A DNA stretch of 61,555 nt, filler included, from Stramenopiles sp. TOSAG23-6 (Eukaryota): the NCBI GenBank assembly GCA_900128565.1. It is 2 parts of 2 records of this genome, joined end to end, with 100 filler letters (N's around TTAATTAATTAA, not from the genome) between each part and the next. Parts side by side here need not be neighbours in the genome. Positions count along the whole stretch, not along the records: positions 1 to 30,741 come from LT635964.1; 1 more part is not named here. One strand, 5' to 3'. Below the pieces are notes generated by a model. It did not search any database. It was not told where the DNA came from and worked only from the letters and a program-made list of their open reading frames with translations. How positions within the stretch are numbered: the first letter of the stretch is position 1; each line of letters begins with the position of its first letter. The position numbers were made by a program, and so were the translations under genes. Below, one piece after another: positions 1 to 54,611 of this stretch.

Positions 1-99
1 TGAAAAAATATTTCAAAAAAAAAAACTTAAATTTGTTAGGTACAAAATTTCGTACAAAACAAAATTCGATTTTTTTGTTAAAAAAAAAATAAAACATAC
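1..99 (-). mobile_element. Introner-type intron (3' end outside window)
   Basis: AT|GTATGT donor, family core and CCTAAC branch site. Confidence 0.85.
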
Positions 100-3000
100 A
101 TATTAAATGGACATAACCAAGGCGAGCCTATATGATGGTCGCCTAATGCAGCTGCAACGGATAATGCGGAGCAGGAGTAAAACATATCCACGTATTTTGG
201 AAAAATATTTGAAAAAAAAAATCATTAGGTACAAAATTTCGTACGAAAAAAAATTCGAAGTTGAAAAAAAATAAAACGTACACTTCCAAATGTTTGTTAA
301 TATGATGATGATGGAGTCTTTCATACAAGGTTGTCAGATGACTTAAACTCCGAAATAAAGTATGTATTTTGGAAAAATATTTGAAAAAAAAATCGTTAGG
401 TATGAAATTTCGTATGAAAACAAATTCGATTTTTTTGTTAAAAAAAAAAATAAAAATATTTGAAAAAAAAATCGTTAGGTACAACATTTCGTATGAAAAA
501 AAAATTAAATTAGAAATTCATATAAAACGTACATTATCTTCATCCCATTCTTTACTTCTATTCAGTGTAATATGTTCAACTATAAAACGAAAACGCCGAA
601 AATCTCTAGTCAGAATTTCCAAAACTGTTTTACTACATACATTGCGTTTACAATGTTTTTTGGAAAAATATTTCAAAAAAAATCTAAACACAATTGTTAG
701 GTACAAAATTTTTTTACCAAAAAAAAAAATAAATTTGAAATTGAAAAAAAATAAAACATACATGCTGTTTGCTATTTTGATTGCTACCATCCTTACCATC
801 ACAAAATGAATTAGAATTCTGAGCTTGATGAAGGATTCCATTTGAATTATTTTGTCTACCATTGTCATAATTAAAAAGAGATTTTGGTTCAATTTCTGAA
901 CAAACTGAGCTGATATTATCATAAGTATTCATACTTAATTTTGCAATCATGACTAACGGAAATTGTAATAATGAATCCGATGTATTTTGGAAAAATATTT
1001 CAAAAAAAATCTAAAACATTTTGTTAGGTACAAAATTTCGTACGAAAAAAAAATGTAGACAAAAAATTGAAAAAAAATAAAACATACATGCTCCAGAATC
1101 ACTTATATGAGAATCTTGTACCATTTCTTCCGGCATAAAAATAACTCGCCAATCCGTTAATAGCAAGGTACCAATTTTTAGTTCGTTAGGAGTAGGGTCA
1201 GGACAAGAACCCAATATCGCAAGAATATGTATTGTGAAAAAATATTTTGTGAAAAAAATCGTTAGGTACGGAATTTCGTACGAAAAAAAAACTTGAATTT
1301 GAAATTCATTATGAAATTGTACATGAGGAATAACCAGTTCTGGGAGTTCTGTGGCTTTGGGTGGAAGAGAAAGAACTCTAGCCTGGGAAGCACGCTGATC
1401 TTTTGATGCATCAAGTAGTAACTTCACACGGCGTTTTCTGAAAAAGTCATTACGAAATTTTGATGCATACGTATTGCAAAAAAATATTGCAAAACAAAAA
1501 AATCGTTAGGTACAAAATTTCGTACGAAAAAAATAAATTCGAAATTGAAAAAAAAAACGTACACTGTGTACATATAAAATGATCCCATGCAATGCGAAGC
1601 GACATCAACTCACCGAAATTAAAAAACGTTTTCATTGCAAATTCTGCAACAGCATTTTGTAATTGAGTCCGTCTCGATGTATTTTGGAAAAATATTTCAA
1701 AAAAAAAAAATTAATTTTTGTTAGGTACAAAATTTCGTACGAAAAAAAATTCGATTTTTTGTTTAAAAAAAAAGATAAAACATACATGCTGCTAAAGATC
1801 TTGCACTGAACGGTTGGCGTGATTCCAACATTCCGCCCTCTCCTTTTTTTAATTCCATCTCTTCAATCGCTTTTACAAATATATTTTGGAAAAATATTTC
1901 AAAATTTACTATAAAAAAATTTGTTAGGTACAAAATTTTCAAAAAAAAAAAATCAATTTTTTGTTAAAAAAAAAAAATAAAACATACATAATTCAAAACT
2001 TCCTGGGGAAAAAATGGGTTTTTCTCCTTCAGTATTTTTAGTATTTTTAGTATTTTTAGTATTTTTAGTATTTTTAGATTGTTCACTCACCCACTTGCGA
2101 AGAACCTTTCGAGACCATCGAGATAGTTGGGCACCTGAAAGGTTTACAATTGTATTTTCATTACTAGTTGTAGAAAAATGAAAACCACGTTTTGCCGCTG
2201 CAGCTACGAAACGCCGAGTGACGTCATCAACTGCTTCTAGATTGGATCCAAGTCGAGTTTTTTCCACATTTGCTAAATTTTCAGCTCTTATATCAGCATC
2301 TATTTGAGCAACTTCTGCTTCTTTTTTTGCTGCATCTAACAAATCAATGTGTATTTTGGAAAAATATTTCAAAAAAAATCTTAAAAAATTGTTAGGTACA
2401 AAATTTCCTATGGAAAAATAAATTCAATTTCAAATTTAAAAAAAAAAAAAAAACATACATTTGTTTTTTCTAGATCCAAACACTTTTCAATATATAATTT
2501 ATCACTTGCAGAATCGTTAGGGTTAGGATTTTGGAGGCTAAAAGGAAGCGCCAATCTACCTTCGCTTCGAATATTTCGTATGAATTGTGGAAAAATATTT
2601 CAAAAAAATCTAAAAACATTTGTTAGGTACAAAATTTCCTATGAAAAAATAAATTCGAAATTGAAAAAAAATAAAACATACATTGATTCGTGAACAATAT
2701 TTTCACTCGGAGATATCGAACAAATGGCCTCAACCAAAATTTCTCCAGTCACATATAATGAAAAGAAATATTTCCAAAAATTGATTTTTTTGTTAGGTAC
2801 GAAATGTTCTATGAAAAACAAACTTAAAATTCATGATAAATAAAAACGAATATAATAAAAACGAATATAATAAAAACGAATAGTATATAAAAACTCAAAA
2901 AAAAATCTTTTTTGTTTTTTTTGTTTTTTTTTGTTTTTTTTTGTTTAGGTACGAACTTTCCTATGAAAAAAAATAATAAATGAAAACATACATGCTTTGA

Positions 3001-3804
3001 ACGTTTCGTCCGTTTGCCTAAGGGAAGCCATTCAGAACAGATGGTGCACGCAGATAGTGAACATATACTCATGTATTGTGAAAAAATATTTCAAAAAAAA
3101 ATTAATTTTTGTTAGGTACAAAATTTCGTACGAAAACAAATTCAAAATTGAAAAAAAAATAAAACATACATAGCAGCTTTCCCAAGAAATTTTCCAGTGC
3201 CAATTATAGATCGTTTGTGAAAAACTTCGACTTCAATAAAAGAGTGTAACCCTTGAGACAACGGAAATACAAACATCATGTCCCAACTAGGGTTAATACC
3301 CCCCTTCTTCTCACCCTCAATCTTATGGTCCAGTGTACATGTATTGTGAATTTTTTTTTTATAAAATTTGTTAGGTACAAAATTTCGTACAAAAAAAACA
3401 AAAATTTGAAATTGATAAAACGTACAGGCTTTTCCGCTACCAACACGTACTTCACAATATGGATTTAATGTTCCAACAGTTCCTTTGGAAGTCAAGTTTC
3501 GGGCGCTAGAAATTTTTACAACGATAAAAGGACCAAGGTCTTGCTGTTTGTGCCGAAGTGAAGACAACTCAAAGAACTCCTTTAATCCTCCTTGCGATCT
3601 ATAAAGTCGAACTGCAAGAGCTGGACGCTTTCTACACGATGCACGGGAATTAACTATAGGTACTATGTCTTCTACTGTAGGTGTATCTTGACCACCACCT
3701 TGATTTATTACAGTCTTCTTAGAATGAAAGTCACTATCAGACGAAGTTTCAACAGAAGGACAGGCATTTCGTTTTTTTCGTGAAAATGGGTTCCAACTCT
3801 TCAT
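1..3804 (-). CDS. C2-domain + PH-GRAM protein, probably myotubularin-related; 14 non-canonical introns, 3' end outside the window
   Basis: Removing 14 repeat introns gives one continuous frame from ATG 3804. C2 motifs: VKISSARNL..LNPYCEV..NPSWD..FVF..EVEVF..FLGKA..EWLPL..VTGEI. GRAM-like motifs: GTLLLTDWRVIF, FPLVMIAKL, LEILTRDFRRFRF. Confidence 0.75.
190..281 (-). mobile_element. Introner-type intron, GT-GT
   Basis: GT|GTACGT...CCAAAATAC-GT; 2-nt duplication GT/GT; frame restored (HLEVDMF). Confidence 0.85.
362..532 (-). mobile_element. Dimeric introner-type intron, GT-AT
   Basis: Two family cores with two CCTAAC sites inside one pair of termini; AT/AT duplication. Confidence 0.8.
653..761 (-). 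mobile_element. Introner-type intron, GT-AT
   Basis: AT|GTATGT...CCAAAAAAC-AT; joins SKQH to CKRN in frame. Confidence 0.85.
980..1087 (-). mobile_element. Introner-type intron, GT-AT
   Basis: Consensus termini; restores SGASDSLLQFP. Confidence 0.85.
1227..1322 (-). mobile_element. Introner-type intron, GT-AT (96 nt, stop-free in frame)
   Basis: AT|GTACAA...CACAATAC-AT; family core; reads as a 32-aa F/Y-rich insert in ORF 1011..1427. Confidence 0.8.
1469..1562 (-). mobile_element. Introner-type intron, GT-GT
   Basis: GT|GTACGT...TGCAATAC-GT; restores CTQYASKF. Confidence 0.85.
1677..1785 (-). mobile_element. Introner-type intron, GT-AT
   Basis: Consensus termini; frame restored (LAASRRTQ). 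Confidence 0.85.
1879..1987 (-). mobile_element. Introner-type intron, GT-AT
   Basis: Ends CCAAAATAT-AT; restores SFELFVKA. Confidence 0.85.
2031..2077. repeat. 9-bp coding tandem repeat (KNT)x~5
   Basis: (tagtatttt)n seen directly. Confidence 0.9.
2349..2458 (-). mobile_element. Introner-type intron, GT-AC
   Basis: AT|GTATGT...CCAAAATAC-AC; restores EKTNIDLL. Confidence 0.8.
2580..2681 (-). mobile_element. Introner-type intron, GT-AT
   Basis: Ends CCACAATTC-AT; nearly identical to the PRMT5 intron at 44436. Confidence 0.85.
2753..2991 (-). mobile_element. Long degenerate dimeric introner-type intron, GT-AT
   Basis: Two degenerate cores plus internal short tandem repeats; removal restores C2 end RSKH|VTGEILV. 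Confidence 0.75.
3071..3169 (-). mobile_element. Introner-type intron, GT-AT
   Basis: Consensus termini; restores FLGKAAMSI. Confidence 0.85.
3339..3425 (-). mobile_element. Introner-type intron, GT-AT (87 nt, stop-free in frame)
   Basis: CT|GTACGT...CACAATAC-AT inside the C2 domain. Confidence 0.8.
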
Positions 3805-5070: not shown

Positions 5071-8000
5071 TCATTTGCCCTGAACATCAGTGTCGTCGTC
5101 GGTTTTAGACCTCCTGCGCCTCCTACGGCGTTCATCTTTTTGGTTCTTCCGTTTAGCAGCCATCAACTTTGCTTGATCTTCATGCTCATCCCTGGCTCGT
5201 GATTCTTCCTCGGCATCTTCAAGCAATGCATCGGTATCTTTCTTGTTTGTTGCTTTTTGCATAGCTTGTTCCCTTGCTGCATGACCAATCGCAGTATTCT
5301 CATCATGCACCTTCATCGACTGTTGCTTTCTTCTTTTTAGTTCCTCTCGTTTACGTTTTCGCCTATTGAAATCATCATCATTTAATTTGCTCTTCTTTCG
5401 TGCTATACCGCCTACTCCTTTTTTATTGTTTTCATTTGTAATAGTGGTAATTACATCCGTAACGTCGCCATCTCTATCAATGTGTAATATCCTACCATCT
5501 TTAGATGCTATGTTCATACTCTTCATACTCTTTATAGTACCATCTCCATGTGATTCTGTATTTTTTACATCAATAGGATCACTCCAAACTATATCCCCAG
5601 TAACTGAATTAACCCAATAAGGAGCATCTTTAGAACGAGAGTAACTCTTGCGCCAATTCTGAACGGAGGATATAGGAACTACTGTACCTTTTTTCTTATT
5701 TTTAGACTTTTTGCACCATTCAAGTAGCGGCTCGGCGAATCTGTCCCGCATACAAGGAATCATACAAATCATAAGGAGAGCGCCAAATATCAAAACACTA
5801 ATGTTAGAAATGACGAGTAATTGTCCCAAAAATTCATTGTTTGAACATGATGTAGAAGTAGATATTAACAACCCACTGAAAAAGATAAAGAATAACACCA
5901 TTAGTAGACATTGTTGTAGTACGTCATCGACATCTGTTTCATACGGTCTCGTATTCATTGCTAGAAGCATAAATAGCACCACTAACAATACACCTAAAAT
6001 ACAACGCTCAACTGGCGTTCCTGCTAAAGACAGAAAGCCAGTCATCATCGCTTTTCTTAACATTTCTATTAGTTCAAACCACCAATATTGTCGCTCGTAT
6101 TGTTCAAATAAAGATCCGTACACGCGTTTTGTGCGATGATAATGCCTATTTCTAATAAGTTCGGCCTCCGTACCAGATCCTGACAATGCCTTTGTATTAA
6201 CCAAGTATTCGCGGCGGGAGTACAATATACAGACATATATAATAGGAATGCCAAAAACGTACAGAGCTATAAAAAGCATAGAAGCTGCTGCAAGTGCTCC
6301 GTATATCTCATCATTCATATTACAAACAATACTAGAATCATCACGAAGGTAACTTATTCCGTTGACATCAAAACAATTAAATACACGAAAACATCTTGTT
6401 GCTAGCCCAGGATATAAAAGAAAAACAACGAGATTAAACATTTTCACTGCATTATCTGAAACACTAAGCTTAGAGAATTGTGCCTCGGGGTTTACAGCTT
6501 TCAAACAACGACATAATATCACTGCACAGATTAAAATCATTGTAAATAGAGGTAAAACCATCATATACACATAAAACTTTGTGTCGTATTTTGTTGAAAA
6601 GTCACATGTAGAAAAACCTGCAAGAAGATTCATGAAATCTAGATTAATCACTTTGAAAAGGCGAAATAGATCGTCGAAGGCTTGGGGAAATTTGACGCCT
6701 AATGAGAAATCTAGCTGTGACATAATTTGCAAATGTCCTACTACCTGTCTAAGTGTTGCCGCCATTGCAGCAATATCAGCAAAGCCAAGTCCGCTGCCTC
6801 CAATACCACCAGTCATTGACAACATGTCATCTTTTTTTGTCATTATGTCATCTGCTTGTGTATATCCATCCTCCATTGATCTTTTCGTTTTGTTCTTTAA
6901 ATTTTCAGGATTACGAGTTTTCCCTACAGAAGATGCTGCAATATCGATCTCAGCTAAAACATTAACGTTGCGTACAAATTTTGAACCTTTTAAGGATCTT
7001 TTACGTTTTAGTCCTTTAGAAACAGTAGGTGTCTCATGTACATGTTTCTTCATTTGCATCTTGGACCATGTTTTTTCCATTTCTATAGCCCTTATCCACT
7101 CAGTGAAAGAAATTGCCCCATTATGGTCTGTGTCAACAGCCTCTACCATCGCACTTGCAAGTCGACTATCCATTCCTTTTTTTGACAAGACGTAAAAATA
7201 ATTCATCTAATCCAACAACGCCATTACCATCAATATCAATATCATTAAAAATGTCATATAAATCCATGTCAGATGCATCGACCTCTTCAAACGGAGGACG
7301 TCTACTGACGTACCAAAATGATACCCAAAATGTTATAAAACACACTAAAATGAATAAATATGTAGCTCCGTCAGAACTTCCTCCGCCCTCACAAAGTACA
7401 CAACTGACCTCATCTCCACCTCTTACATAACTTTCAGCACATACACCACAAAGGGGTCCCTCATAACCAACCTTGCAAGTACCCCATGCGCCACCACCAT
7501 TGCAAGCTTCGTGAGTTAAGTCTTCCACGAATGTAGTATTTGTTGAAGCTGTAGCAGTTGCTTCACATTCGTCATTGTCGTTTGATTCTAATGTATAAGC
7601 ACCATTAATATTCTTACACGTGCGCATTCTTGCTGTTGCGGGTTTCAGTTTGAAGTATGGTCTCTCCTGCCAATAACCTTTCAAAATATGTATTTGCATA
7701 TTAGGATCATTTGTCATAAATGCAAGACCTGGTTTCGTGCAATTCATTCCCGTGGTGCACATTGTACATGAAATTGCCAAGGTTTCATCGGATGAAAGAT
7801 CTTCAATAAGCATATCTGTAGCCGGTTTACCATATTTCTGCTGAAAATATGCTGAGTTAAATTGTTCATAACCTTGTACAGGTGGCTCATAAAGATCGAC
7901 ATCGCCTAAATGAGCATAGTACGATACTGGGCACTGGCAACGATCTTTTGTTTCATTCGTTGTTGCTATAGGATGCCAACAACTATAAGGTGCCTTCGAT

Positions 8001-20000: not shown

Positions 20001-23000
20001 TGCGGAGGGAACTTGTGTGACTTCCAATAAATATTCAAGAGGGTTTGCTGCACCCCAATCGTAAGCAATATGTTCATTAATAGCAAGCTTACAGGCCGTT
20101 GTTTCGGTAAAAACAAACTGCACGGTTTTATTAGGTTGTACACAGAATGAACTCCGCCAAGCTTTTGTTACACATACTTCATTTATAAGGGTACATTCAC
20201 TAGTACATTGAGTAGGACTTCGGTTAAAACAAGGATCCCTACATTGTGTTTTACCAGCTATCTCTACTCTATCGCACAAAATGCCTTCAGGACCAGTGTA
20301 CAATACAGGGCATTTGCTTACTGAAAATGCTGAGCATGGATCACATGTAACAAACATTTCTACCCGGTTCGATGCATTTGTGCCCTTGTTTTTCCCACTT
20401 TTTACAACTTTAGTTGAGGTTGCACCCATTGTATGTCCGACAATGTCACAAACCGCATTATTCTCCCCCTCAAAAGTTGTTTTACCCAGTGACGATTTTA
20501 GCCTAAGTACATGTTGCCGGAAAAGACCTGTTGGATTTGGCTTATACGGAGTTTGGAATGTAAAATATAATTTTGTTGGCCGAATGTTAGATTCAATAGT
20601 ACTTAGTTGGGCAATTGCACCCATCTTGATATCGTCTACATCTATATAACCAAGGCACGATCCAACATTTTCGCTGTTTTGGTTTAGAACCAATAAATTA
20701 TTCTCAGTATCCAATGCACATGAAGTGCATGAATCCGCTTTATTGGCTTCAATGCAGGTGTTACACGTTGAATGACACGCGCCCGCAGCAAACACCTCAG
20801 CAGACCTGACAGTAACATCATGGCTTTGTCCCCAATAGAAAGAAAAATCGATGTATTGTTTCTTCTTGATGAAGCATCCATTTGAAGATTTCCTTGGCTC
20901 TATTCCATTTTCGTCAATGTCTACATTATTAGCTTTGCGAATAATCCAGGAATGTTGTTCTGCTTCTGCAGTAAACGATCCGTACAGTGCACATCCCTTC
21001 CAGTAATCGAGACCATATTGTCCAGCACCAGACCCAGCAACATATGCCTGACATTTTGGATTATCATTACATAGTTGCCGACATTCTTCAGATGAAGTCA
21101 CAGAGCCCAATGTAGCAGTTGGATTTGGACAGATTGGATATGGCCTACGTAATAAACCCTTGTATGTTTTTTCCAATGGTACACACGAATTTCCTGTAAA
21201 GCTACAGCATGAATTTTCCTTTGCTGGGATAGATTGGCATATCGAGAATTTATCTACGACACTAGATGAAATTCTTGATTGCTTCACTTCACATGTGTCT
21301 TGATAATCTGAGCCATTTGTACAATCATCCTCGTCTTCCATTTCACATGATCCATCATCACCGAAACGGCAACATCGATCAGCTTCACTTAGATTATTAC
21401 ACGATTGCAATGTTGTAGGATTTCTTTTTGTGGGACATAAGAGATCCACATCTGCGACATTTGTTATGTAGCTCTCGAGAGGGCGCGTAGAGCCATTTAA
21501 AGATATACCTTTGCAAACACCAAGTTGTCCATTACTTGACGCAATATATCCTTCGATACTTTCGTGACTTTTGAACTTACAGTGCGATCCACTTTTAATT
21601 ACAACTTTTATCGGAGCTCCATGTGGGAGATTGTCATTCAGCGATATTGAAATGCTCTCTTCTTTTTCGGCAAGCATACAGTCACTTGAATTTGTGATAA
21701 TCTCATATCCGTACTTGCAGAAATAATAAAAATCTTCAGAACATTTTTTTCTACCCAATGCACTGCAATCTGGGTCATTCATACACTTAGTCTTAGCATC
21801 TTCTAAAGAATCAAACTCTTGGAAGTTGTACTGATGAGGAGCATCATGTATTGTGGAAAAATATTTAAAAAAAAAAATCATTAGATACAAAATGTAGTAG
21901 AAAAAAATATTTAGGTAAAAATTGAAATGAAAACATACACACGACAAATTCATCGATTCCATAAATAAATAAGCTATATTTGCGGTATCAAAATACTCTT
22001 CATCGTCACCATTGACATTCTTAACACTGACGTCACACTGACTTTCACCAATTGGTAAACCTTTACCTTGGCTATCGATAAAAAAGGGAATATTTGCTTG
22101 GGATTCATCACAGGGTTTGACAGTGTAATATTTCCAGCTCAGACCAAAAGATGGTGCATTGGACAGTGATACATTAGAATTATTGAAGACAATACATTCT
22201 TTCTCTTTCGGATTATATAATATTGCATTACATATACTACCCCAATTCGAGCATATATTGAAACAACTTTCAATAGTGGAGTGATTATTTTTCACTTTAC
22301 TTGCTTTACCTTGTGATATTTGTTGTTGATGAGAATTTGAACCACTTGGATGAAAGAAAGAACTCCCCTCAAAACGGGGGCAATTCACATCTACGAATGA
22401 AAACTTTCGTTTATGAACCATAAAATGTATGTTTGATGTATTCTGCGATACTCTGAATTTTGTAGAGATAGTTGTGGGTGCATGATCTGGACCAAATTGT
22501 AAGGAATCCATAAAAACACTCAGTTGACATTTACCTACGATATCACTAACTTCAGTTAGTGACAGTTCCCCATTACAATTTCCACAACGAGTTGCATCAT
22601 TTTTATTATTACAACCATTGCAGGTTTCGTGACAATCATTTAGTCCAATGCTTTGCAACGACTCTCTCTTGTGTTGTTCATCGGTAAAATAATGATTCCA
22701 CTCCCTATAATAACTTCCGCCATTTCCGTCAGAATATTTATGTCTCCATCGAATACCAAGACCTCTGTTATCATCATCGGCGGAATCAATTTCCCTAAAT
22801 CTACAATCACTGTCATCATTTTCGTCTGATTGCATTATAATGGTTAACACTTCTCGATTTTGGGGAAATAAAGCAGTGGTTGAAAATTTGGCCAATATTG
22901 AAACATCTTTAGTGGCTAGATACATCTCTTCATGTTCTTCATCTGGATTAAGTGAAGGACATTTTTCATCATCTTCATCCAATGTTATGAAACCACTCTC

Positions 23001-25021
23001 ATAATTTGATCCAGGATTTGCAATTTCACACCACGTAATATCACCATTATGAAAACATACATTAAGTGTCATTCCAGTACCTTCGCCACCTTTTGTTGCT
23101 ACACCTTGAAAACATTCATTTTGGACGTCATATCTTCCCTCATTATCACCATTATCATCCCGACAAGAAATCAAAGGTACAAATTCTAATTCAGGATTTT
23201 CATCATTTTCAGGGCGGATTTCATTTAAGAGAAATTGTTTTCTTGGAAATGATGAACCTGCAATGTAGGATTCAAATTTACACCTACTCGATTGTTCGTC
23301 GGAGTCTAAAATAGATTGTTCAATTGCTGAAGATTCAGTTACATAAATCTCAGTACTTAAAATGTTTTGATCACTCCGATAATGCATTGTATTATCAGGC
23401 ATTATTGAAATTTGTGCACTTGTTGGAGTAGTCTCTTCCTGTAAAGTGTTAAAAGTTGCCAAAATCTCTGGACACATTCCAACAATTTGAATCGGGGGCC
23501 AATTGCCGTCATGGTAGCTCAAACTACTAACACTCGGATTTAGAAAGTCAATATTACACGCATGACAGCTATGACTATCATGCTGGGCATTGCACGAATC
23601 AAAGGCACAACTTCTTGGGCACCTCCCAGACTCAAGAAAATCGAGGGAGAAATAAAATTCAACATCGTCGTCTTCAATGTTTGCGTAAAATTCCATATTT
23701 GAAGAAGGATTTGAATTCATTGAGCAGATACTAGTGAACCGAATAACGATAACAAGCGTCTGATTTTTATTAACACTTTCAGATAAAGTGATTGTGAGTT
23801 TATCTGAGGAGTCTACAGTGATACATATATTGTGAAAAAATATCTTTTTGTAAAATTTGTTAGGTACGAAATTTCGTACAAAAAAAAAATTCGAAATTAA
23901 AAAAAATAAAACATACTCTCCGCAATATTTGTTTCGTGTGGATAGTTTCCGCGGACATCCAGAATACTGCAGTTCTCAATATAGTCTGGAAATATCCTAT
24001 TTGCAGAATTGCCATTTATATCATGTCTTATGAAGATTTTGTCACCAGCAGATAAACTTTGACTCGTTTCAAACTCGGCGTAGAAAACATTTGGTACGCG
24101 ACCAATTACTTGATTATCAAATTTTACTCGAAAGTTGCCATTATTACCACCATTACCATTATTACCACCATTACCATTATTACCACCATTACCATAACCA
24201 TCACTATCATCATTACCACCACCACCTGCACCTCCATCATTATAATCATTACCTCCACCACCTGCAGCACCTCCATTATCATTGACTTCACATACACCAG
24301 TTGATCCATTATTGTGATTATATCCCACACACTTTGGCTTGTCACTAGGGCACTGGCNCTGTGAGCTAACAGAGGAAGGATAAGACTGTCCACAGCAAGG
24401 TGAACTGGATTCGAAGTCTGCCTGGCAACCTTCATCATCTGCACCTCCACCACCTCCATTATTATTGACTTCACAAGCACCCCACGTATGTTGCGAAGAA
24501 CTTGAACTTTGAACATACCCCGTACACTTTGGCTTGTCAGTAGGACACTGGTACTGTGAGGGAACATTAGAAGGAATAGACTGTCCACAGCAAGGTGAAC
24601 TTGAGGAGTAGTCAGCCATACAATCTTGATTGCAAGCACCCCACGTGAATTCATTTGCATTTAAACTATAAACATACCCCATACACTTTGGCTTGTCAGT
24701 AGGACACCGGTACTGTGAGGAAACAGTCTGAGGAACAGACTGTCCACAGCAAGGTGTAGTTGAGGAGTAGTCAGCCATACAACCATTATTATTGACTTCA
24801 CAAGCACCCAACGTTTCTTGCAAAGAAGTTCTAACATATCCCACACACTTTGGCTTGTTAGAAGGACACCGTTTCCCTGAGGGAACATACTGAGGATCAG
24901 TCTGTCCACAGCAAGGTGAACTTGAGCCGTAGTCAGCCTTGCAACCGACCATTGCATCAACCGCAACTAAATGAATTAAGCAAAACAATACATATATTCT
25001 TCTGAACATGTGATTCGACAT
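5071..25021 (-). CDS. Giant (~6,500 aa) Cys-rich cell-surface multi-pass protein: signal peptide, Cys repeats, PAN/apple-like, FN3-like, many GCC2/GCC3 (CPxGxYC) repeats, EF-hand pair, multi-TM region, WW domain
   Basis: Eight same-strand ORFs are joined by introns at 23825 and 12803 and by five +1 frameshifts; a third intron at 21846 lies in frame inside one ORF. One EF-hand pair (DIDGNGVVGLDE / DTDHNGAISFTE) straddles a break. WW motif WRKSYSRSKDAPYWVNSVTGDIVWSDP. Confidence 0.75.
12803..12895 (-). mobile_element. Introner-type intron, GT-AT
   Basis: AT|GTTTGT...CACAATGT-AT; joins EKPW-NQRRC in frame into ORF 10155..12614. Confidence 0.85.
21846..21938 (-). mobile_element. Degenerate introner-type intron, GT-AT (93 nt, stop-free)
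   Basis: GT|GTATGT...CCACAATAC-AT; reads as a 31-aa F/Y-rich insert. Confidence 0.75.
23825..23916 (-). mobile_element. Introner-type intron, GT-AT
   Basis: GA|GTATGT...CACAATAT-AT; restores AESITVDSS in frame into ORF 19389..23720. Confidence 0.85.
24285..24945 (-). repeat. Four ~50-aa six-cysteine coding repeats (CxADYxSSSPCCGQ..CPxDKPKCxGY..GAC)
   Basis: Directly visible at DNA and protein level; followed by GGNNGN microrepeats at about 24140-24200. Confidence 0.9.
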
Positions 25022-25267: not shown

Positions 25268-26541
25268 ATGTCAAAGGAACCACACCCGGGCGACTGGGAA
25301 TGTCCCGGGTGTTTACTGGTAGTGTTTGCACATCGTAGTGAATGCATACGTTGTGGTTTTGCCAAGCCAGGTGAGTATACTGTACCAAAGAAGTTACGAG
25401 CAAAGGTATCGAGACCATTGGCCAAGGAGGAAACAATCTCAACGAAATGTAATAATAGTTTAGAAAAAGGAACACAATCCAAGACAATTCACAAACAATC
25501 ACAACGAAGCCGTCACAATAAAAAACGGCGTCTTCGTCAAAGTGCTAGGAAGCCTCGCTTTGCAGCGTTTGCTCGTTGGATAAAGGAAAAGTTTGGTAAT
25601 GTGATGCTCCCAGGTTGTTCTGTCCTTGATGTGGCTGGTGGTTCAGGAGGCCTGTGTTGGGAATTGGTTGCCCCGTTATCAACAATAGATTCAATTAGAT
25701 GTACTGTGATAGATCCAAATCCCGTCCGATTTAGTAGAAGAAAGACTGAAAATCTCATTCGCGCTGCCTTAGTTAGAGTTAATGATTGCAATTTCAGTGT
25801 GACCAAAGTTGAAAATGTCACCAAAATAGACTCTCAGATAAAGGTGGCACTCGACATCAAGTGCTTAGACAAGACAGTCATTGATAAGGCTTCAGATGTT
25901 GTAAGCGATACAGCTGTAAATATTCTTCAAAAACGTGGCGCCCAGCAGCTAAAAACTCTTTTTAATGCAGACTTTTGTTCTGGTCAAAATCCGAATGGGT
26001 CTGAAATCTCGAAAGATTTGTGGCAAAAATGTGTGTTGGTAGTTGGCTTACACCCAGACCAAGCAACGGATTCAATCGTAGACCTCGCACTGAAGCATCA
26101 AAAGCCTTTCGCTGTCGTTCCATGTAGGTTTTTTTATCATTACGTTTCACCTCTCTATTTTTTTTTATACCAAAATTTGTACCTAACAAATTTTTTACAA
26201 AAAAAAAAAAAAATATTTTCCACAAAATATGCTGTGTATTTCCAACACTCTTTAAAAAACGTCGTCTTCCTGGTGAACTAAAAGTACGTACGCGTGAAGA
26301 ATTATGTGAATTTTTGAGGTTAAAATCTCCGACTTATATACATATATGTTTTATTTTTGTTTCAGTTTCGAATTTATTTTTTTCATAAAATTTTGTACCT
26401 AACGATTTTTTTTTGAAATATTTTTCCAAAATACATGTAGATACAATACCTGATTTACCTGGTCCTTGTAATACGGTAGTTTGGTGTTGTGACTATTCTG
26501 TACCAACTTTATCAACTGAAGACAATATTGTAAAAGTATAA
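25268..26541 (+). CDS. RanBP2-type zinc finger + SAM-dependent methyltransferase-like protein (3 exons)
   Basis: GDWECPGC..FAHRSECIRC; VLDVAGGSG; VVGLHPDQATD; splicing restores PFAVVPCCVFP; stop at 26539-26541. Confidence 0.8.
26124..26230 (+). mobile_element. Diverged introner-type intron, GT-AT
   Basis: AT|GTAGGT...TACCTAAC...CACAAAAT-AT; restores VVPCCVFP. Confidence 0.85.
26344..26436 (+). mobile_element. Introner-type intron, AT-AT
   Basis: AT|ATATGT...CCAAAATAC-AT; contains an in-frame TAA; the nearby AG (26439-40) changes frame. Confidence 0.75.
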
Positions 26542-26770: not shown

Positions 26771-28736
26771 ATGAAGATTCTATCACTACTAACACTATTT
26801 GTTTCAGCATCTTTTGTATACGGAGGCGATCCTGTGCCTGTTCACGATGAAGGCTTTAAGCGTTTTCAAGGAAAAATTAAAGGAGCGCCCTTTGAGCTTA
26901 TGCTTCTGACACAGCATGTTCCCACCACATCAGGCGTCGATGCAGCTCTAGTCAAGAGTGAGAACGGACGTGTGATGATGTTTATTCCATATTTGGAGAA
27001 TCTGCATTATAAACTTACAGGGCTTGACCTTATCGTCACGTCATCAAATATTGTAAGTGTTTATGCCGCAAAGGGACCCATGGGAAGGTTGGAAGAGTTC
27101 GAGATAACTTTTTCTTCGACTGAAATAGCCAAAAGCTTTGTAACTGCTGTAGAAGCTGTATTTAATCCGACCACTGCAATTACCAAAAGTGAATCAAGTG
27201 CATTTCATATTCCAACAAGCCGTCAAGAATCTAAAGCTCCCGGTTATGCTTCAATCAATGAATCGGCACAGACTAACAACCAGCAGATTAAACCACATCT
27301 TCAAGATCTTCAAGTGCTCACAGCTAAAGACATAGACACTGGTTTTGAGCGACCTAAATTGACGAAAGAATCTTCAGCTGAGCTCCCCGGTAAGATTCAT
27401 CTAATAAAAGACAAATCACTTCAAGATTTGTATGAGTCAGATTCAACTTCAAGAGGAACTGCGTGGCAAACACGTGCAGGTGTGGCGGACTTCAGGACCA
27501 AGGAAGAAACCAAATCTTTTCTTGAGTTAGTAAAAGAAGGCAAACAACGTTATGATGACGTTGCGGACGATAAACACTCAGACCAGTACTATGAAGCTAA
27601 CTATACCCACGATGAATATCACTGTTATGAACAGATTGTAAAAGATGTTCCAGATCGAGTGGCTGCAACTGATCAAGAAAAAGAAGCACTGACAAGAATA
27701 TTATGTGCTTATTCCGTGTTTGATCAACGACTCCGGTTTTGTCAGGGAATGGATAATATTGCACTTACGCTTCTCAGACTCCCAATATCAGGAAACACAG
27801 ATGAGGGGAAACAAGATGGAGGGAAAACAAGCAAAATTTCTGAAGAGGATGCATTTTGGTTATTAGCAACAATATATCATGATAAAAAGTACAAATTATC
27901 AAATTATGCACGTATTGACGATGGTGGAACAGTAGCAGAAACTGTCGCAGAGGCTGTGGAAAATTTGATGGAGTTACAGGAAGGTAATGATGCATTACAG
28001 AAGATGCTTGAGTTTCCCAAAGCCATGAACAATTTGACTTTTTTTGTGTACAGTTTGACACATAAAATTTTCCAAATGTTTGAAGGGTTTGCAGTTAAGC
28101 TTGACATCTATGACATGTTTATTGAAAGTGGGTGGCCAGGTTTAGTAAGAGCCATCGTTGCTCTTGTTAATTTTGCAAGGTAAGTGAAAATATATCATAT
28201 TTTATTTTATGGAAATCTCGAAATCACAAATTTATATATACTAACTAATCAAAATTTCTATTTTTACCACATAATTCAACAGTACTTTGCTTTTGGAAAA
28301 ATTTGGAGCAGCAAACAACTGGAAAATTGGTGAAATGGAAAATGATGCACAAGAAATATTTGAAGCGTTGCCCAAAACGTGTACACAGAAAAGATTTCGA
28401 GAGAGCCTTAAAGCGATTAAGCCATTTGAAGAATTTGATACAATTTATTTAAGAAAGTTGCATGATATTTTTTATGAATCGAAGTCACCACGAAAAATGT
28501 CAACAACTCAGAGACGTAGAAAATATCAAAAAGCTCGAATGTCTCAAATGCGGGGGCATTCACTGCCTGCAATGCCAAGAGAGCCAATGGAAGGCATGAA
28601 CGTATCAGTACCGCGGCGATCCAAAAGCGCCAACGGCAGAGGAAGATCGATATCGCCAAAACCTATGTCAAGAGAGGCAGACACCGGGTCACTTTCATCA
28701 TTTTTGTCTTTCTTCAAAAAATCTTCCGGAGAATAG
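26771..28736 (+). CDS. TBC (RabGAP) domain protein with N-terminal signal-peptide-like sequence (2 exons)
   Basis: QIVKDVPDR, LTRILCAYS, FCQGMDNIA, EEDAFWLL motifs; canonical intron joins the two ORFs in frame. Confidence 0.8.
28180..28282 (+). other. Canonical GT-AG spliceosomal intron
   Basis: AG|GTAAGT...TACTAAC...CAACAG|; in-frame join FASTLLL. Confidence 0.9.
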
Positions 28737-28876: not shown

Positions 28877-30686
28877 TTACAATTTTCTTATTTCTTTTAC
28901 AACAAGACGAATAAGGCATGCAGAAGCCATTAAACAGCAAAACATCAAAAAGTAAAATACATAATTCCATCCGAAATACGTTGAAATTGCACCAATAGCA
29001 ACGCCTTGGATTGCAGCACCTATTGAACCTGTACCATCTACTATACCAGTTACGGTAGCCATTAATTTACCTTTTGAATAGTTTGAATGTTCATAATCTA
29101 TGTTTGCAGATTCTGAATTGCTCAGAGAGGGATGACAACCGAGATCAGCTGAAACTGCTGTAGTAATGTATTTTGGAAAAATATTTCAATTGGTTTTTCT
29201 TTAGGTACAAAATTTCGTACGAAAAATAAATGTGAAATTGAAAAAAAAAAATAAAACATACATGAGTGCGTAAGGACCATTAATTAATACTCCAACAAAT
29301 AGCATGAGGAATACATTTGGTAGCAACTTATCGCCAATCTCAATAGATATATATCTGTATGTAAGTAATCCAGGGATTGAAAGTATCAGAAATCCAAAAG
29401 AGACACAAGCAGGTTTACGTGTCATATCTCGTAAAAGTCCAGCAAGGATACTCCCAAATATGCCACCAATATCAACAAAAGTACACAGATATCCCGCATG
29501 TACAACGGAAAAACCATTATGCACTAAATAATATGGTGTCCAAAAAATAAAAGTATACGCAACTAATTTAACAAATAACAGACATACAGAAAATTCAATT
29601 ACTCCAGGGATGTGTTTTGGAAAAATATTTCAAAAAAAAAATTTTCAATTTGTTAGGTACAAAATTCCGTACGAAAAAAAAAACGAATTTGAAAAAAAAT
29701 AAAACATACATACACAATGCTTTGTAAAAATTAGACAATGACTGTTTACGCTTTGGGTTTTGTTTCATATTGTCTGCGGATAACACTTGACTTTCATTAT
29801 TTCTGAAAGATGACAAATTTGGATGTACATTATTTGACACATTTTCTGGATTTGTCTGTAAACGAACTTGCCATACCCCGCTTTCTCGAGTGCTTACACT
29901 ATGTAGTTGTCCAGTACTTGACATCAAATCAGAGTCGTTTAATTCTTCTTCATTGAGTCGTTGAGAATACATGTATTTTGGAAAAATATTTCAAAAAAAA
30001 ATCGTTAGGTACAAAATTTATGNAAAAAAANAANTTCGAAACTGAAAAAAAAATAAAACATACATATTCCTAATGCCAGTTTCAGTTGATGATATTATTT
30101 GATCTCCGATATTTTCTTGAGAAATGACATCAAGATCACCTGTTGGAAATCCAAGTTTCGAAGGATATGGAATGATAAAAATAAAGACAGTTATTGTAGA
30201 TATAAACATTACAACACCCGCAATAACAAAAGCCATTGGCCATGTATTTTGGAAAAATATTTTTAAAAAAAGTAGTTAGGTACAAAATTTCGTACGAAAA
30301 AAACCTTCGAATTTGAAAAAAAATAAAACATACATGAAACATTGTTTTTTCCTAATTCACCAGTCCATAGAGGGAAGCTTAAAGCTGCAGTACCCAATAT
30401 ACTCCCAATGATATTACCAGTACTAGTGTGAGCATTCCAAATACCCATGACTAGACCTCTTTCATGTTTTCCATACCAATTACCAACGATTGATACAACA
30501 GCAGGCCAACCTGAAGACTGAAAAATACATGTCCGAGAAAAAATATGTCAATCACAAAAAATATTATTAGAAACGGATACAGAATGTTTTGAAAATAAGA
30601 AAAACAAATGGATTTCAGTCTGAAGAAAGTACCTTGTACTGCATAGATAGAAATAAAGTAAATCAGAGAGTGTTCTTTGAACCAGT
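28877..30686 (-). CDS. SLC37-type (glycerol-3-phosphate/sugar-phosphate exchanger) MFS transporter, 5' part lost in gap
   Basis: After splicing: QGIFQSSGWPAVV, GIWNAHTSTGNIIG, IPGVIEFS, NGPYALITTAVSADLG, ATVTGIVDGTGSIGAA. Confidence 0.92.
29166..29261 (-). mobile_element. Introner-type intron, GT-AT
   Basis: Restores NGPYALITTAVSADLG. Confidence 0.92.
29610..29709 (-). mobile_element. Introner-type intron, GT-AT
   Basis: Ends CCAAAACAC-AT; restores ALCIPGVIEFS. Confidence 0.9.
29971..30063 (-). mobile_element. Introner-type intron, GT-AT
   Basis: Consensus termini; contains n bases; frame restored (RNMYSQ). Confidence 0.8.
30242..30333 (-). mobile_element. Introner-type intron, GT-AT
   Basis: Restores NVSWPMAFV. 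Confidence 0.88.
30529..30632 (-). other. Highly diverged GT-AT intron
   Basis: AG|GTACTT...TTCTAAT...GACATATTTTTTCTCGGACAT|; restores VQGIFQSSGWP. Confidence 0.78.
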
Positions 30687-30741
30687 ATGTATTTTGGAAA
30701 AATATTTCAAAAAAAAATCTTAAAAAATTTGTTAGGTACAA
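30687..30741 (-). mobile_element. Introner-type intron, 3' half only (runs into gap)
   Basis: CCTAAC...CCAAAATAC-AT followed by SLC37 exon. Confidence 0.8.
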
Positions 30742-30841
30742 NNNNNNNNNNNNNNNNNNNNNNNNNNNNNNNNNNNNNNNNNNNNTTAATTAATTAANNN
30801 NNNNNNNNNNNNNNNNNNNNNNNNNNNNNNNNNNNNNNNNN
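30742..30841. other. Assembly gap (100 nt) containing a TTAATTAATTAA six-frame stop linker
   Basis: N-run with ttaattaattaa at 30786-30797. Confidence 0.95.
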
Positions 30842-30901
30842 TTGTTAGGTACAAAATTTCGTACGAAAAAAAATAAATTCGAAATTGAAAAAAAAACATA
30901 C
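30842..30901 (-). mobile_element. Introner-type intron, 5' half only (TERT intron 2)
   Basis: AT|GTATGT donor and core up to the branch site, then gap. Confidence 0.8.
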
Positions 30902-31794
30902 ATTGGAAATGTCCCGTTTTTATTTTTTTTAGTAGAATTAGGTTTTTCGTGTTTCTCATATAATTCCTTATAATTAGGAATGTTTGATTTTATTATTGAG
31001 TTTGCAGGAATACCAGTTAACTGTATAAATGCACCATTAGACATTCTCAATAATAATATCTTGTGTAATAATAAATAATGTACTATAAAAAATACGTCAA
31101 ATGAAAAAATTCGTTAGAAAAAAAATGAAATTGAACAAAATGAAATTGAACAAAATGAAATTGAACAAAATGAAATTGAACAAAATGAAATTGAACAAAA
31201 TGAAATTGAACAAAATGAAATTGAACAAAATATTTGAAATGAATAATGAAAAAATACGTGCATCATTTCGTCGCCAATCCGAGAAAGGAGAAAACACCAT
31301 GCCTTTTGTGTTACAATATTCACTATTGTGTTAGGAAAATGACACATTAGTCCGGGAAGACCTATTATACCATTGTTTTCACCGGGTCGCTGTTTTTGAT
31401 AACCCCGAGTGAGAAGATGCATTTCATGTTGCTTCTGTGACATTTTTGACGATTTGAAAGCACACGCAATGACGCGATTAACTACTTCATTTTGAGTTTG
31501 TTCTGGCGGACGAAACTTTGGCAAAAAACGGCATTCGCGAGCAGTTCCATTCGTTTTAGTCTCGGCAACATAACAGTCACGCAGTAAATCTAGGTATTCT
31601 TTTGGATCATTTGGACGTCGAAGCCGTGACGTTGCCGTTGGATTGCACTTCACATTTGTCGAAGATTTTGTCGAAGACATTGAAACAGAACGCTTACCAG
31701 AACTAATATTCTGTTGTTGTGCTTCATATTCTTCAAGATATTTTCCAAGAGATTGAAAACTACCAAATATATGCCGTGCAACAGAGTTCTGCAT
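30902..31794 (-). CDS. TERT: Telomerase reverse transcriptase, N-terminal TEN domain (remainder lost in gap)
   Basis: Spliced product EVVNRVI..HLLTRGY..HFPNT..AWCFLLSRIGDEMMHYLL..NGAFIQLTGIP follows the TERT TEN/GQ pattern (ELVARVL..NVLAFGF..YLPNT..WGLLLRRVGDD..YQVCGPP). Confidence 0.85.
31078..31257 (-). other. GT-AT intron in TERT carrying a minisatellite
   Basis: AC|GTATTT...TTCTAAC...GACGTATTTTTTATAGTACAT|; the AG 5 nt upstream of the end gives a frameshift and stop. Confidence 0.8.
31126..31230. repeat. 15-bp tandem repeat x7 (tgaaattgaacaaaa)
   Basis: Seven exact units inside the TERT intron. Confidence 0.95.
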
Positions 31795-32080
31795 TGCACA
31801 ATATGAGGAGTTTCTTTCTTTTAGACTGTGTTTGTGACATGTCATATTACCAAAATCAAATCTGAATTTGTCAGGAAAACACGAAATCCAAAATTTAGAG
31901 GAGCTTTGATCGAAAAAATAAATCGTATCTGCGTACACACACACAGTTTTAGGATATTGAAAAATCCCACAACAAATTATTAAATTATTGACATTTTGAA
32001 GTCACTTGTGTTATTGGCATTGTTAGTGTGTTTATATTACAAAGACCTATTTATTAAAGCTATCATTACATTGGTGTGAA

Positions 32081-52026: not shown

Positions 52027-54611
52027 ATGGTTACTTCAGAAAATACGTCAAGTGGTGCATTTGCAACGAAAACATTTTCAGCAACGATTGAAAGTGTAAA
52101 CACAAGATTTAAAACGGACCAAAATAAACGTATAGTTCAACTTCAACATCGCTCCAAAGCGATATCGACAGATGTAGAAAAAATGCGTCACGTGAAACTG
52201 AAAGAACGGGAAATATCATTTAAAAAAAAGGATAAGCTAGTTTGTTTACAACAAAAATATAGTGAATATCGCAGGCAACTAGAAAAAAAAGACAGTTCTA
52301 TTAGAAGACTTAAACAGCAGATAGCAACCGTCAATGCAAAAATTCAGCAACATCAATCGAACCACGAGCTTTATAGTAGCAAGTCACACAGTTCACAGAG
52401 TAGCTTATATGGAAACGTACGAAATGATCTGTATAGAATTAAAAGCAATGTAAGCCAAGAGAGAACTACTCAGTCTGATTTACTTGACAATTTGAAAATA
52501 TCAGATGAAGAGCGCGTGAAACTTCAAACAATGTCTTTACAGGTATATTCATCTTTTTTAGATGATAAAAAAAAGAAAATGAAGCAGGACATTATAATTG
52601 ATTCTTTACTAGATGAATGTATAGAATTAGAAAAAGATATCAAAAAAGTTTCAGAAAAAAAAATTAAATTGCTAGAAAAAAAACACATTCTTTCAAATTT
52701 ATTTTCGATATTAACTGATAAAGCAGAAGCATTTACACATAGTTCAAAAAACTTAATGAATAGTCGAGTTAAAGATGTTGAAATAGGTAAAGAAAAACTT
52801 CAGAAATCAAGACTAATATGTTTTATTTTTTTTCAAATTCGAATTTTTTTTTCATACGTAATTTCGTACCTAACGATTTTTTTTTGAAATATTTTTCCAA
52901 AATACAAGTATACGTAGAAATGAAACATTTTGCAAATATGTTAAAGAATGCAAAAAGTCCAACTATGAAGGAAATACGACATAAACGTAATATCATAACT
53001 GAATATAAACAAAAATTGTTTAATTGTAAGCAACATAATGCTGTATTGTATGACATTTTGTTGAAGCAAACTAATAATAGAAAAAGTGATTATACTAATT
53101 GTACAGAAAAATCAAATTCATTGGATACTCAGCAGTTAGAATGTGTAACCCTAACCACTAAAAAGAATATACAGGTAGAAAAAGGAAAATTAGAAAATTG
53201 TGTTTCACAATTTGAAGCAACAAAGAAAACACTTGTAGAGGCACGTTTTTTAGCTAGCAAATTATGTACAAAATTAGATATCAAAACAAGTCGTGTGGAA
53301 CGAATTGATGGGCAAATAAAGAAATCATGTAGTCGTAAGGAACATTTAGAAACAAAAATAAAATCAACCATAGAAAACACATTACATTACAGAAAGAAAC
53401 ACAAAAATTTAAAAAAGAAATTTTTATTAGATTATAAGCAATGTGAAAAACTGCAGTCAATTATTGATGCTGCAAAATATCGTATTAAAAATGTTGAGTC
53501 TACTATAACACAGAGAATGATATCCTTACAATGTAAAACACAAAATGTAATGAAGGTAAAGCGCAACAATTCACAGAAATCAAAATTGTTAGACAATTCT
53601 AAAGAAAGTAATTTAATGATCAGTAAGAAAAAATTAAATTTAAAAAGTAAAATAAAACAATATGAAGAACTGGAATCATATGCACTGACGAACCACACAA
53701 AGTTTTCATTGCGTTTGGATGAAATGAAGGAAACAATATCAAAGTTATACAAAAGTACGGAAAGTTATACAGATATATTGCAACGCAAGGTAAATCGCGC
53801 TTCCGATATAAATTGTCAAATAAAGCAGTGCAAACTTGAACAATACAACTGTTTGGAAATTTATAAAATACGAAAAACACTATGTGAAGCTTTAGTTGGC
53901 CAGCATTTGAAGTGCAAAGAAAGTCAAAGAGTTACTTTAGAAAAAATGAATACATCTTTGAATACCTACCAAAGAGAATTGCAAAAGTTGAAAGAAAAAA
54001 CAGTTTCATTCGGTGTAAAGCTTCAATATGTAAATGTATCAAAACAGAATTGTGATAAAATTCGTAGATTATCTCAAACATGTATGAGAGAGGCCCAAAA
54101 AAATCATTTTGCAGTATTAAAAGAATCATCTAGCACTATGACACCCGCATCGTTGGAATCGAATATTGCTCGTTGTGACAATAAAAATTCTACAATTGAT
54201 AAAAATTATGTTTTATTAATACAAACACTAAGAAAAAGAGAGGAAAGTTCCATTTTAACAAATACGTTTCTAAAGAAAAATATACAAAACAATGAGAAAA
54301 TGAGACATCGGTTGGGTCAAGTACAAATAATAAAAAAGAAATTGTTGGAGGATTGTGGAAATTCAACAATTGAATGGCAAAATAAAATATCAAAAATGAA
54401 GATAAAAACTCTAAAGATTAAATCACAAATTGGCCGTATAAAGTCCAGAGAATCTAACTTAAAGAAAATGCTCGATGAGGAAAATCAAATTTCAAAACAT
54501 TTAGAGTTTTTCGCAAAAAAATGGAAAAAAAAAGAAAAAGCAATTCTAAGAAAACTTGAAATACTTGAAAATAGTACCACTCCTAACCCTAGTAGTAACG
54601 TCTACCCGTGA
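52027..54611 (+). CDS. Lys-rich coiled-coil protein (2 exons), function unknown
   Basis: ORFs 52027 and 52818 join in frame on removal of 52816-52907. Confidence 0.75.
52816..52907 (+). mobile_element. Introner-type intron, AT-AA
   Basis: TA|ATATGT...CCAAAATAC-AA|GTA; removing 92 nt joins the two long ORFs. Confidence 0.75.

Follow-up and report, generated by a model that had tools for sequence, protein, structure and literature searches.

The last G of the intron is near-universal, and a 104-base intron of Stramenopiles sp. TOSAG23-6, which appears to run from GT to AT, raises the question of where exactly it is cut, by which machinery, and where its unusual end comes from. The intron lies in the 3′ part of an SLC37-type gene within the window, i.e., the whole stretch of DNA analysed (61,555 nucleotides), which is AT-rich, eukaryotic DNA composed of two contigs and a linker; the genome assembly (G000) amounts to 21.1 Mb over 6236 contigs. 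Many introns of this genome belong to a family of transposon-like introns of roughly 95 bases spread through it, hereafter the family. The features of the locus are the following:

30742–30842, no strand: assembly linker (N runs flanking an all-frame stop word), with another contig past it
28877–30741, minus strand: 3′ part of the SLC37-type (glycerol-3-phosphate transporter-like) gene, from Pfam and homolog matches
30687–30741, minus strand: 3′ half of a family intron, cut at the contig end
30633–30686, minus strand: exon upstream of the 104-base intron, 54 bases, AG at its end, located by tblastn with the predicted protein
30529–30632, minus strand: SLC37 intron, 104 bases from GT to AT, interrupting an invariant Gly codon in phase 1, from homology and family profile
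30566–30570, minus strand: candidate branch motif CTAAT, the presumed branch A (30567) lying 39 bases away from the AT end
30537–30546, minus strand: U-rich ATATTTTTTC box that begins 18 bases ahead of the AT end, a spacing also seen in the family
30334–30528, minus strand: exon downstream of the 104-base intron, MFS_1 match, whose first bases GTA repeat the intron start
30518–30520, minus strand: first CAG past the AT end, out of frame, which must be skipped
30511–30513, minus strand: in-frame CAG, whose use would remove six conserved residues
30242–30333, minus strand: neighbouring family intron, 92 bases, AT/GT...AT (the slash marks the junction), removed in one RNA contig
29971–30063, minus strand: family intron of the same gene, GT...AT
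29610–29709, minus strand: family intron of the same gene, GT...AT
29166–29261, minus strand: family intron of the same gene, GT...AT

The 5′ exons of the gene appear to lie on contig C3293. On that contig (loci L096 and L140), they are followed by a family copy and then by unrelated sequence, probably through a misjoin at this repeat; duplicated sequence also occurs within contigs C13/C14, C2, and C4. Elsewhere in the window, a very long coding region (5071–25093, minus strand) changes frame near 7170, 10170, 14300, 18600, and 19500 without intron signals, these changes being either assembly errors or the mark of a decaying gene.

The ends of the SLC37 intron

The first-pass annotation had placed an intron of 104 bases at 30632–30529 of the minus strand, with GT first, AT last, and AG before it, and this was confirmed. 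Removal of GT...AT yields the junction Gln-Gly-Ile-Phe-Gln, as had been claimed, and its Gly is kept in 16/16 full-length SLC37 homologs. The splice register was scored over 1144 frame-keeping, stop-free donor/acceptor pairs against these 16 homologs, out of 29 found. The best score (234.1) is common to four registers, shifted by 0 to +3 bases (GT-AT, TA-TG, AC-GT, and CT-TA), registers +4 to +8 being near the top (233.2). Shifts of −1 and −2, the latter corresponding to the NN...AC register (here AG...AC), put Cys in place of the invariant Gly, just as predicted for NN...AC, and lower the mean score to 225.1 vs. 234.1, against each of the 16 homologs. Equally in line with the annotation, the use of the in-frame CAG located 18 bases on costs six residues and scores 199.4, again lower against 16/16, i.e., an AG acceptor with the same donor loses 35 with respect to GT-AT. 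The CAG located 11 bases on shifts the frame, as does the unspliced form. The best GT-AG option of all reaches 206.3, the best one retaining the intron's own donor 199.4, and no AG option fits the SLC37 homologs.

The statement that no duplication exists at this site did not hold, since GTA is present both at the intron start and at the start of the downstream exon. Owing to this repeat, registers 0 to +3 yield an identical mRNA, and mRNA reads are therefore unable to tell the four apart. The protein, said to fix the GT...AT register, does so against NN...AC and the AG acceptor, and does not against the three right-shifted registers. The latter, however, would be left without any donor: pairing with the U1 found in this genome (see below) involves 7/11 positions at GT vs. 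4, 5, and 4 at shifts +1, +2, and +3. GT...AT being the only top-scoring register that has a donor, it is fixed by elimination, the AG...AC register and the AG acceptor being excluded at the protein level only. Judging from homology, the 104-base intron is real, and the register first assigned to it is right with one correction.

Other signals point to the major spliceosome. The CTAAT motif is complementary to the standard U2 and lies at a usual distance from the end (39 bases, the range across the family being 33–53), so we infer that it likely serves as the branch. The GT donor pairs with U1 positions 7–8 and their neighbours, the 7/11 pairs being Watson-Crick ones. The donor is unlike the extended minor-spliceosome consensus, and neither U12 nor U6atac was found in the assembly, which is incomplete; the intron does not behave as a U12-type one on either count. 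It is best described as a putative non-canonical U2-type intron, not GT-AG.

The RNA runs containing the SLC37 gene are seawater metatranscriptomes, four of which were mapped on 30035–30741. RNA across the SLC37 intron junction was found in 0/4 runs, none of which covers 30515–30658. The depth on 30035–30741 derives mostly from family copies located elsewhere, and a contig of run X1 spans 30358–30508 of the downstream exon. In run X4, one contig (record 17, 156 bases, 78 of them on the shorter side) skips the 92-base neighbouring intron, and its joint has five equivalent registers, GT-AT and AT-AC included, none of which is AG-ended; GT-AT and AT-AC are thus not separable there. The neighbouring family intron (30242–30333) is removed without an AG in this one low-depth contig (depth 3.8) of one study.

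An introner-like family and the origin of the SLC37 intron

The family consists of many similar copies at unrelated sites, as introners do: 35 profile matches fall in the window, the 104-base SLC37 intron not being among them, and 89 copies were counted in about 623 kb of non-redundant DNA. The ends were studied in 411,555 bases, in which 137 core matches led to 84 copies with both ends called ignoring the last two bases. The called ends leave the frame open in 75/84 copies, one-base shifts doing so in only 17 and 23. Once 7 duplicates had been discarded, along with 8 copies lacking an open frame, 69 copies were left, whose terminal dinucleotides are AT (56), GT (5), TT (5), AC (1), AA (1), and AG (1). 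Judging from the flanking bases, the family end often copies the last two bases of the exon: TT is found at the end of 5/7 copies with upstream TT vs. 0/62 of the others (p = 2e-6), and, among the 20 copies with a non-AT exon end, 9 copy it, 9 end in AT, and 2 have another end. Terminal AT is lost in 2 of the 49 copies with an AT exon end. A preferential retention of terminal AT is suggestive only, the bias being not significant in this under-powered sample (9 vs. 2, p = 0.065) nor in an overlapping set of 73 copies (8 vs. 2, p = 0.11).

In the latter set, an AG between branch and end is bypassed in 22/73 copies, the U-rich box starts 19 bases before the end in 52/73 and 18 bases before it in 8/73, and a C directly precedes terminal AT in 59/73. 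The junction of the family reads AT/GTAYGTT, with a GT donor in 73 of the 79 frame-open copies. The first two bases are AT (4) or GA (2), not GT, in the following ones, and the GA...AT copy of a Rheb-like gene (L120) has to be removed to keep the frame:

26344–26436, plus strand: family copy with an AT or GA start
52816–52907, plus strand: family copy with an AT or GA start
locus L120 and contigs C1, C4, and C11: further family copies with an AT or GA start

Copies are unevenly distributed. About 16 of them crowd the first 3.4 kb of the window (1–3430, minus strand), in one C2-domain gene, some being fused or in tandem, and the adjoining genes have zero copies over many kilobases. On contig C1 (17483–17678, plus strand), two copies stand head to tail with no exon between them.

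It had also been noted that some copies vary upstream of the intron and keep the terminal AT:

3339–3425, minus strand: family copy, 87 bases, upstream CT, terminal AT, in a stop-free frame
21846–21938, minus strand: family copy, 93 bases, upstream GT, terminal AT, in a stop-free frame
23825–23916, minus strand: family copy, upstream GA, terminal AT, joining two ORFs of different frames
31078–31257, minus strand: 180-base intron of another gene, probably a decayed member of the family, with AC upstream and AT at its end

The bases reported for the first three copies were recovered, and, since those at 3339 and 21846 lie inside stop-free frames, stops do not force their removal. The fourth does have upstream AC and terminal AT, but it sits on another contig, past the linker. 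Its last 50 bases are family-like (0/100 shuffles reach their score). The ORFs flanking it gave no significant Pfam or PDB match, nor an Atlas match, and its boundaries are therefore without homology support. The gene that it splits (30907–32001, minus strand) may resemble the N-terminal GQ region of telomerase reverse transcriptase near the junction, a likeness not confirmed by the Pfam, PDB, and Atlas searches.

As for the SLC37 intron, the remark that it barely resembles the family was not borne out: it scores 12.7 bits vs. −2.5 ± 2.5 for shuffles, none of 300 reaching it. The profile was built from 69 copies, and the selected members, which score 31 or more, also trained it; the SLC37 intron stays far below them, its score coming from the shared signal boxes. 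The family signal resides in its last 50 bases (0/100 shuffles) and not in its first 54 (19/100), and the last 50 bases of 7 non-family introns never beat their shuffles (10 to 95 of 100 reach the score). Moreover, the intron aligns end to end with family copies.

Its position, suggested for comparison with the SLC37 genes of other eukaryotes, is not shared: none of 19 related loci, several of which are probably transcripts or bacterial and as such cannot show introns, has an acceptor there. Five of them, genomic loci of algal and animal-like type, have their acceptor 10 bases further upstream, and none at the Gly codon. The position is thus absent from the loci compared in other lineages, which is again a mark of introners. 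Intron sliding from the site 10 bases upstream was considered and rejected, since the shift loses the invariant Gly. Profile, shuffles, and position fit one of the two explanations offered at the outset, that of a very old copy, and the SLC37 intron is read here as a decayed family copy at a lineage-specific site. The exon-end copying seen in the family (TT-TT in 5/7 copies, a match in 9/20 non-AT cases) has a bearing on its terminus, which reads AT with AG before the intron. Since the last exon base is the first G of the invariant Gly codon, the target-site copy would have been AG; the AT now present was therefore either brought in by the element or produced later by a G-to-T change.

The other explanation, that pre-existing introns also use AT, applies to a minority. 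Non-family introns, whose positions we take to be ancient, were collected from Rab, Arf, ubiquitin-conjugating, and proteasome genes of the assembly and from one RabGAP gene of the window:

28180–28282, plus strand: non-family GT-AG intron of the RabGAP-TBC gene, with an in-frame AG and no in-frame AT, its acceptor being fixed by frame and not by homology

Among those with both ends readable, 13/15 are GT-AG and 2/15 are GT-AT (L109, Rab7-like, and L105). Six were scored on an in-genome Rab profile, eight read by eye (frames, conserved motifs), and one by frame; several single acceptors and an unclear case (L192) were left out of the 15. In L109, the best AG option scores 113.7 vs. 130.1, and L105 has no AG option in range; the ends of the two Rab GT-AT introns are fixed by homology, left-shifted registers scoring lower by 1.6 to 2.6 bits. 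The RabGAP-TBC intron is an internal control, in that AG ends persist. As both GT-AG and GT-AT occur among non-family introns, the machinery takes YAG and YAT. A de novo codon-score search for such introns was too noisy with loose filters (602 unsupported candidates), and with strict filters it missed the 104-base SLC37 intron itself; of its calls, only the RabGAP one was used.

Some of these introns have a composite appearance. Family-like inner sequence is found in GT-AG introns of L178 (contig C858), one of the 13 and family-like in its 5′ part, and of L124 (contig C315), which suggests nested insertions into older introns. L105 (contig C2105) is a Rab intron of 389 bases, whose donor is the classical GTAAGT and whose last bases are a family-like TACAT; a family copy has possibly taken the place of the original end of an old intron there.

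Splicing RNAs and proteins, and the readings weighed

The genes for U5, U2, U1, and U4 snRNAs lie head to tail within 640 bases (L004:9–645, contig C1146), and a family copy is present on the same contig. The U1 candidate, the only U1 found, matches the full Rfam model RF00003 (1–166) with 54.1 bits, below the cut-off of 69.5 (E = 7.5e-12); its fold, its Sm site, and its place in the cluster suggest that this putative U1 works like U1. Its two copies may be one locus assembled twice. The loops binding U1-70K and U1A also depart from consensus.

At its 5′ end, this U1 carries three changes relative to the Rfam consensus: position 2 lies opposite intron +7, position 5 opposite intron +4, and position 9 opposite the final base of the exon, and all three changed bases match the family junction by complementarity. 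With G-U pairs allowed, the altered base can pair in 73/73 copies at position 2, in 73/73 at position 5, and in 67/73 at position 9, the figures for the consensus bases being 0, 0, and 3; the copies were partly selected on donor sequence and not on the exon base. Over 11 positions, the U1 found pairs better than a consensus U1 in 69/69 copies (10.1 vs. 7.3). Exon-end T precedes 67/73 family copies vs. 2/15 non-family introns (p = 2e-9), 11/15 of the latter having G; position 9 is therefore suited to the invading family rather than to the old introns. Old GTAAGT donors pair worse with the altered U1 (6–8 pairs vs. 7–10 with consensus), so a further U1 of the standard type may exist outside the assembled contigs. 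With about 8/14 proteasome subunits found in it, the assembly is incomplete and could lack such a U1, as well as U2AF35 or minor snRNAs. In a search for a standard U1 gene, the consensus 5′ end gave 7 exact matches vs. 10 for a reversed control, none of which scores as U1. The SLC37 intron donor is weak and matches 1/3 U6 positions; it forms 7 pairs with the altered U1 vs. 6 with consensus, although duplex energy favours the latter (−5.6 vs. −4.4 kcal/mol). The acceptor junction of the same intron pairs with 10/11 U1 positions.

The pairing regions of U2, U5, and U6 are standard, and unchanged is also the region around the 3′ end in a Prp8 stretch aligned to human residues 1342–1700, which we take to include the part touching the 3′ end. 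A single U2AF65-like gene was found (L134, contig C433), with two similar first-type RRMs and a UHM; its product is about 27% identical to animal U2AF50, has closer relatives in other algae, and belongs to a divergent group also present in brown algae, the best named relatives being from brown and golden algae. A UHM search of the assembly recovered only this gene. U2AF35 was not among 16 CCCH finger matches, and motif searches for it gave chance matches or other genes.

The reading favoured here, with a probability of about 0.7, is that the SLC37 intron is cut as GT...AT by the major spliceosome, that it is a decayed copy of the family, and that U1 has tracked the family junction; cut positions, family origin, and U1 complementarity come from the sequence. 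We infer branch use, a positional rule, and an order of events as follows. U1, then U6, would define the GT donor in the normal register, and U2 would bind the CTAAY branch. The 3′ cut would be set by position, after the U-rich box about 18–19 bases from the end, at YAT or YAG, with a last-base check accepting U as well as G. The terminal AT of the SLC37 intron would have come with the element or from G-to-T in an AG copy, and U1 position 9 would have turned from C into A as most introns came to follow an exon ending in AT. This suggests that the splicing machinery adapted to the invading family.

An unrelated, older GT-AG intron might instead have occupied a classical AG/GT site, its last base turning into T, and its branch and U-rich box looking like those of the family for the sole reason that every AT-ending intron requires such signals. 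Both the AG/GT context and the first 54 bases, indistinguishable from many shuffles (19/100), agree with such an origin, and the two Rab introns ending in AT indicate that conversion appears possible; yet this is unlikely, given that the last-50-base test, in which the SLC37 intron beats 100/100 shuffles, is failed by 7/7 non-family introns, both GT-AT ones included, and given the end-to-end alignment with family copies and a position unlike those in other eukaryotes' loci. We regard as very unlikely that the in-frame CAG serves as the acceptor in this gene copy, or that splicing is poor, the protein being shortened or dead and the AT end never used. Even if a canonical in-frame GT-AG option exists, AG acceptors are active in 13/15 non-family introns, and the junction is missing from the RNA of the four runs, the stretch of six residues separating AT from CAG agrees with the homologs (the drop of 35 concerns 16/16 of them), as would hardly be expected of intron sequence, the out-of-frame CAG comes first, and the neighbouring intron is removed without AG.

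The ends of the whole family might also be drawn two bases to the left (AT-AC or NN-AC), for a minor spliceosome or a shifted U1 pairing. Most copies, having AT on both sides, would give the same mRNA, the RNA joint allows AT-AC, and C is common before terminal AT (59/73), but such a cut would destroy the invariant Gly in SLC37 and lower the scores of the two Rab introns by 1.6 to 2.6 bits; G at +5 occurs in 73/73 copies in the GT register, partly by selection, vs. 2/73 in the shifted one, and the failure to find U12 or U6atac, a weak point in an incomplete assembly, goes in the same direction, which makes this reading highly improbable. Hardly any credit can be given to excision guided by pairing of the inverted intron ends, as proposed for the non-conventional introns of euglenids: the family ends do form a short inverted repeat (median duplex energy −4.2 kcal/mol), but the value for the SLC37 intron is −0.7, canonical introns reach −1.2 to −5.9 by chance, and donor, branch, and U1 complementarity are all spliceosomal. 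An end-to-end hairpin as a guide was rejected for the same near-zero end pairing.

Returning to the major-spliceosome cut of a decayed family copy, a doubtful extension of it is that U1, having changed the conserved CU at positions 9–10 into AU, both binds exon-end AT at the donor and recognises the AU acceptor. The 10/11 pairing at the SLC37 acceptor would fit such a U1, and Reich et al. reportedly observed in 1992 that U1 contacts the 3′ site in fission yeast. If this were true, the intron invasion would have rewritten the junction rule from AG/G to AT/G and begun an AG-to-AT conversion, with the SLC37 intron and the two Rab introns among its products.

Comparison with known systems and meaning

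Some of the closest parallels come from tunicates. According to the available part of the report on Fritillaria borealis and F. pellucida, introns are U2-type, 3′ AT is the commonest end (44% and 34%, respectively), a YAY triplet precedes the 5′ site and recurs at the 3′ end, canonical introns are a minority, the main classes are AG–AC and AG–AT, the U2AF subunits are duplicated, and U1 shows an m6A change (PMC13326754). As in that part of the report, 3′ AT dominates here, YAY occurs at both ends, and canonical introns persist as a minority. Unlike the AG starts described there, donors are GT (73/79), and one family dominates; the 5′ sequence of U1 departs from consensus, whereas the tunicate account speaks of the m6A change and not of a dedicated U1 sequence; and the organism is a marine protist, a stramenopile. 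As to the U2AF duplication, one divergent U2AF65-like gene was found in this incomplete assembly.

In Entamoeba and Mastigamoeba balamuthi, coevolved U1 changes face intron +3 and +4, as given in the accessible part of that study (bioRxiv 10.1101/2022.06.08.495308). The ACGUAC pairing core and the matching pyrimidine at intron +4 are shared with Mastigamoeba; compared with what that part reports for the two genera, positions 9 (facing the last exon base) and 2 differ as well, and the introns that match this U1 lack AG ends. Introners, e.g., those of Chrysochromulina sp., are described in the part of the survey at hand as carrying the 5′ site, the 3′ site deriving from target-site duplication (PMC9860276). 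The present family resembles them in consisting of short, repeated introns that finish with a copy of the preceding exon's last bases (TT-TT in 5/7), but the introners described there co-opt canonical splice-site bases, whereas the bases copied here are mostly AT. The term "GT-AT" had 0 matches in the available part of the supplement of that survey, which began from annotated introns. Rare GT-AT introns occur in human and mouse, with a conserved U2-type case in DGCR2 and seven U12-type cases in the part of the account available (PMC1557818). These cases show that GT-AT ends can be spliced; among roughly half a million sites, they stand as isolated exceptions and not, as here, as a main class. 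A literature search, mostly of open-access sources, returned no GT-AT intron family or position-9 U1 change in a stramenopile.

Few features of splicing are as conserved as the last G of the intron and the U1 base opposite the end of the exon, and the exon-end G is itself conserved, as stated in the accessible part of one source (PMC8283771). This genome runs GT-AG and GT-AT introns with standard U2, U5, and U6, a standard Prp8 3′-end region, and a U1 that matches the invader. The SLC37 intron separates the AT end from the insertion footprint: as the target-site copy would have been AG, its AT end is independent of that footprint. The combination of interest is this footprint-independent AT end together with a U1 matching the family. 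Gene finders requiring AG will mis-splice many genes of the lineage, and both the adaptation of a spliceosome to an intron invasion and a role of U1 at the 3′ end are made testable.
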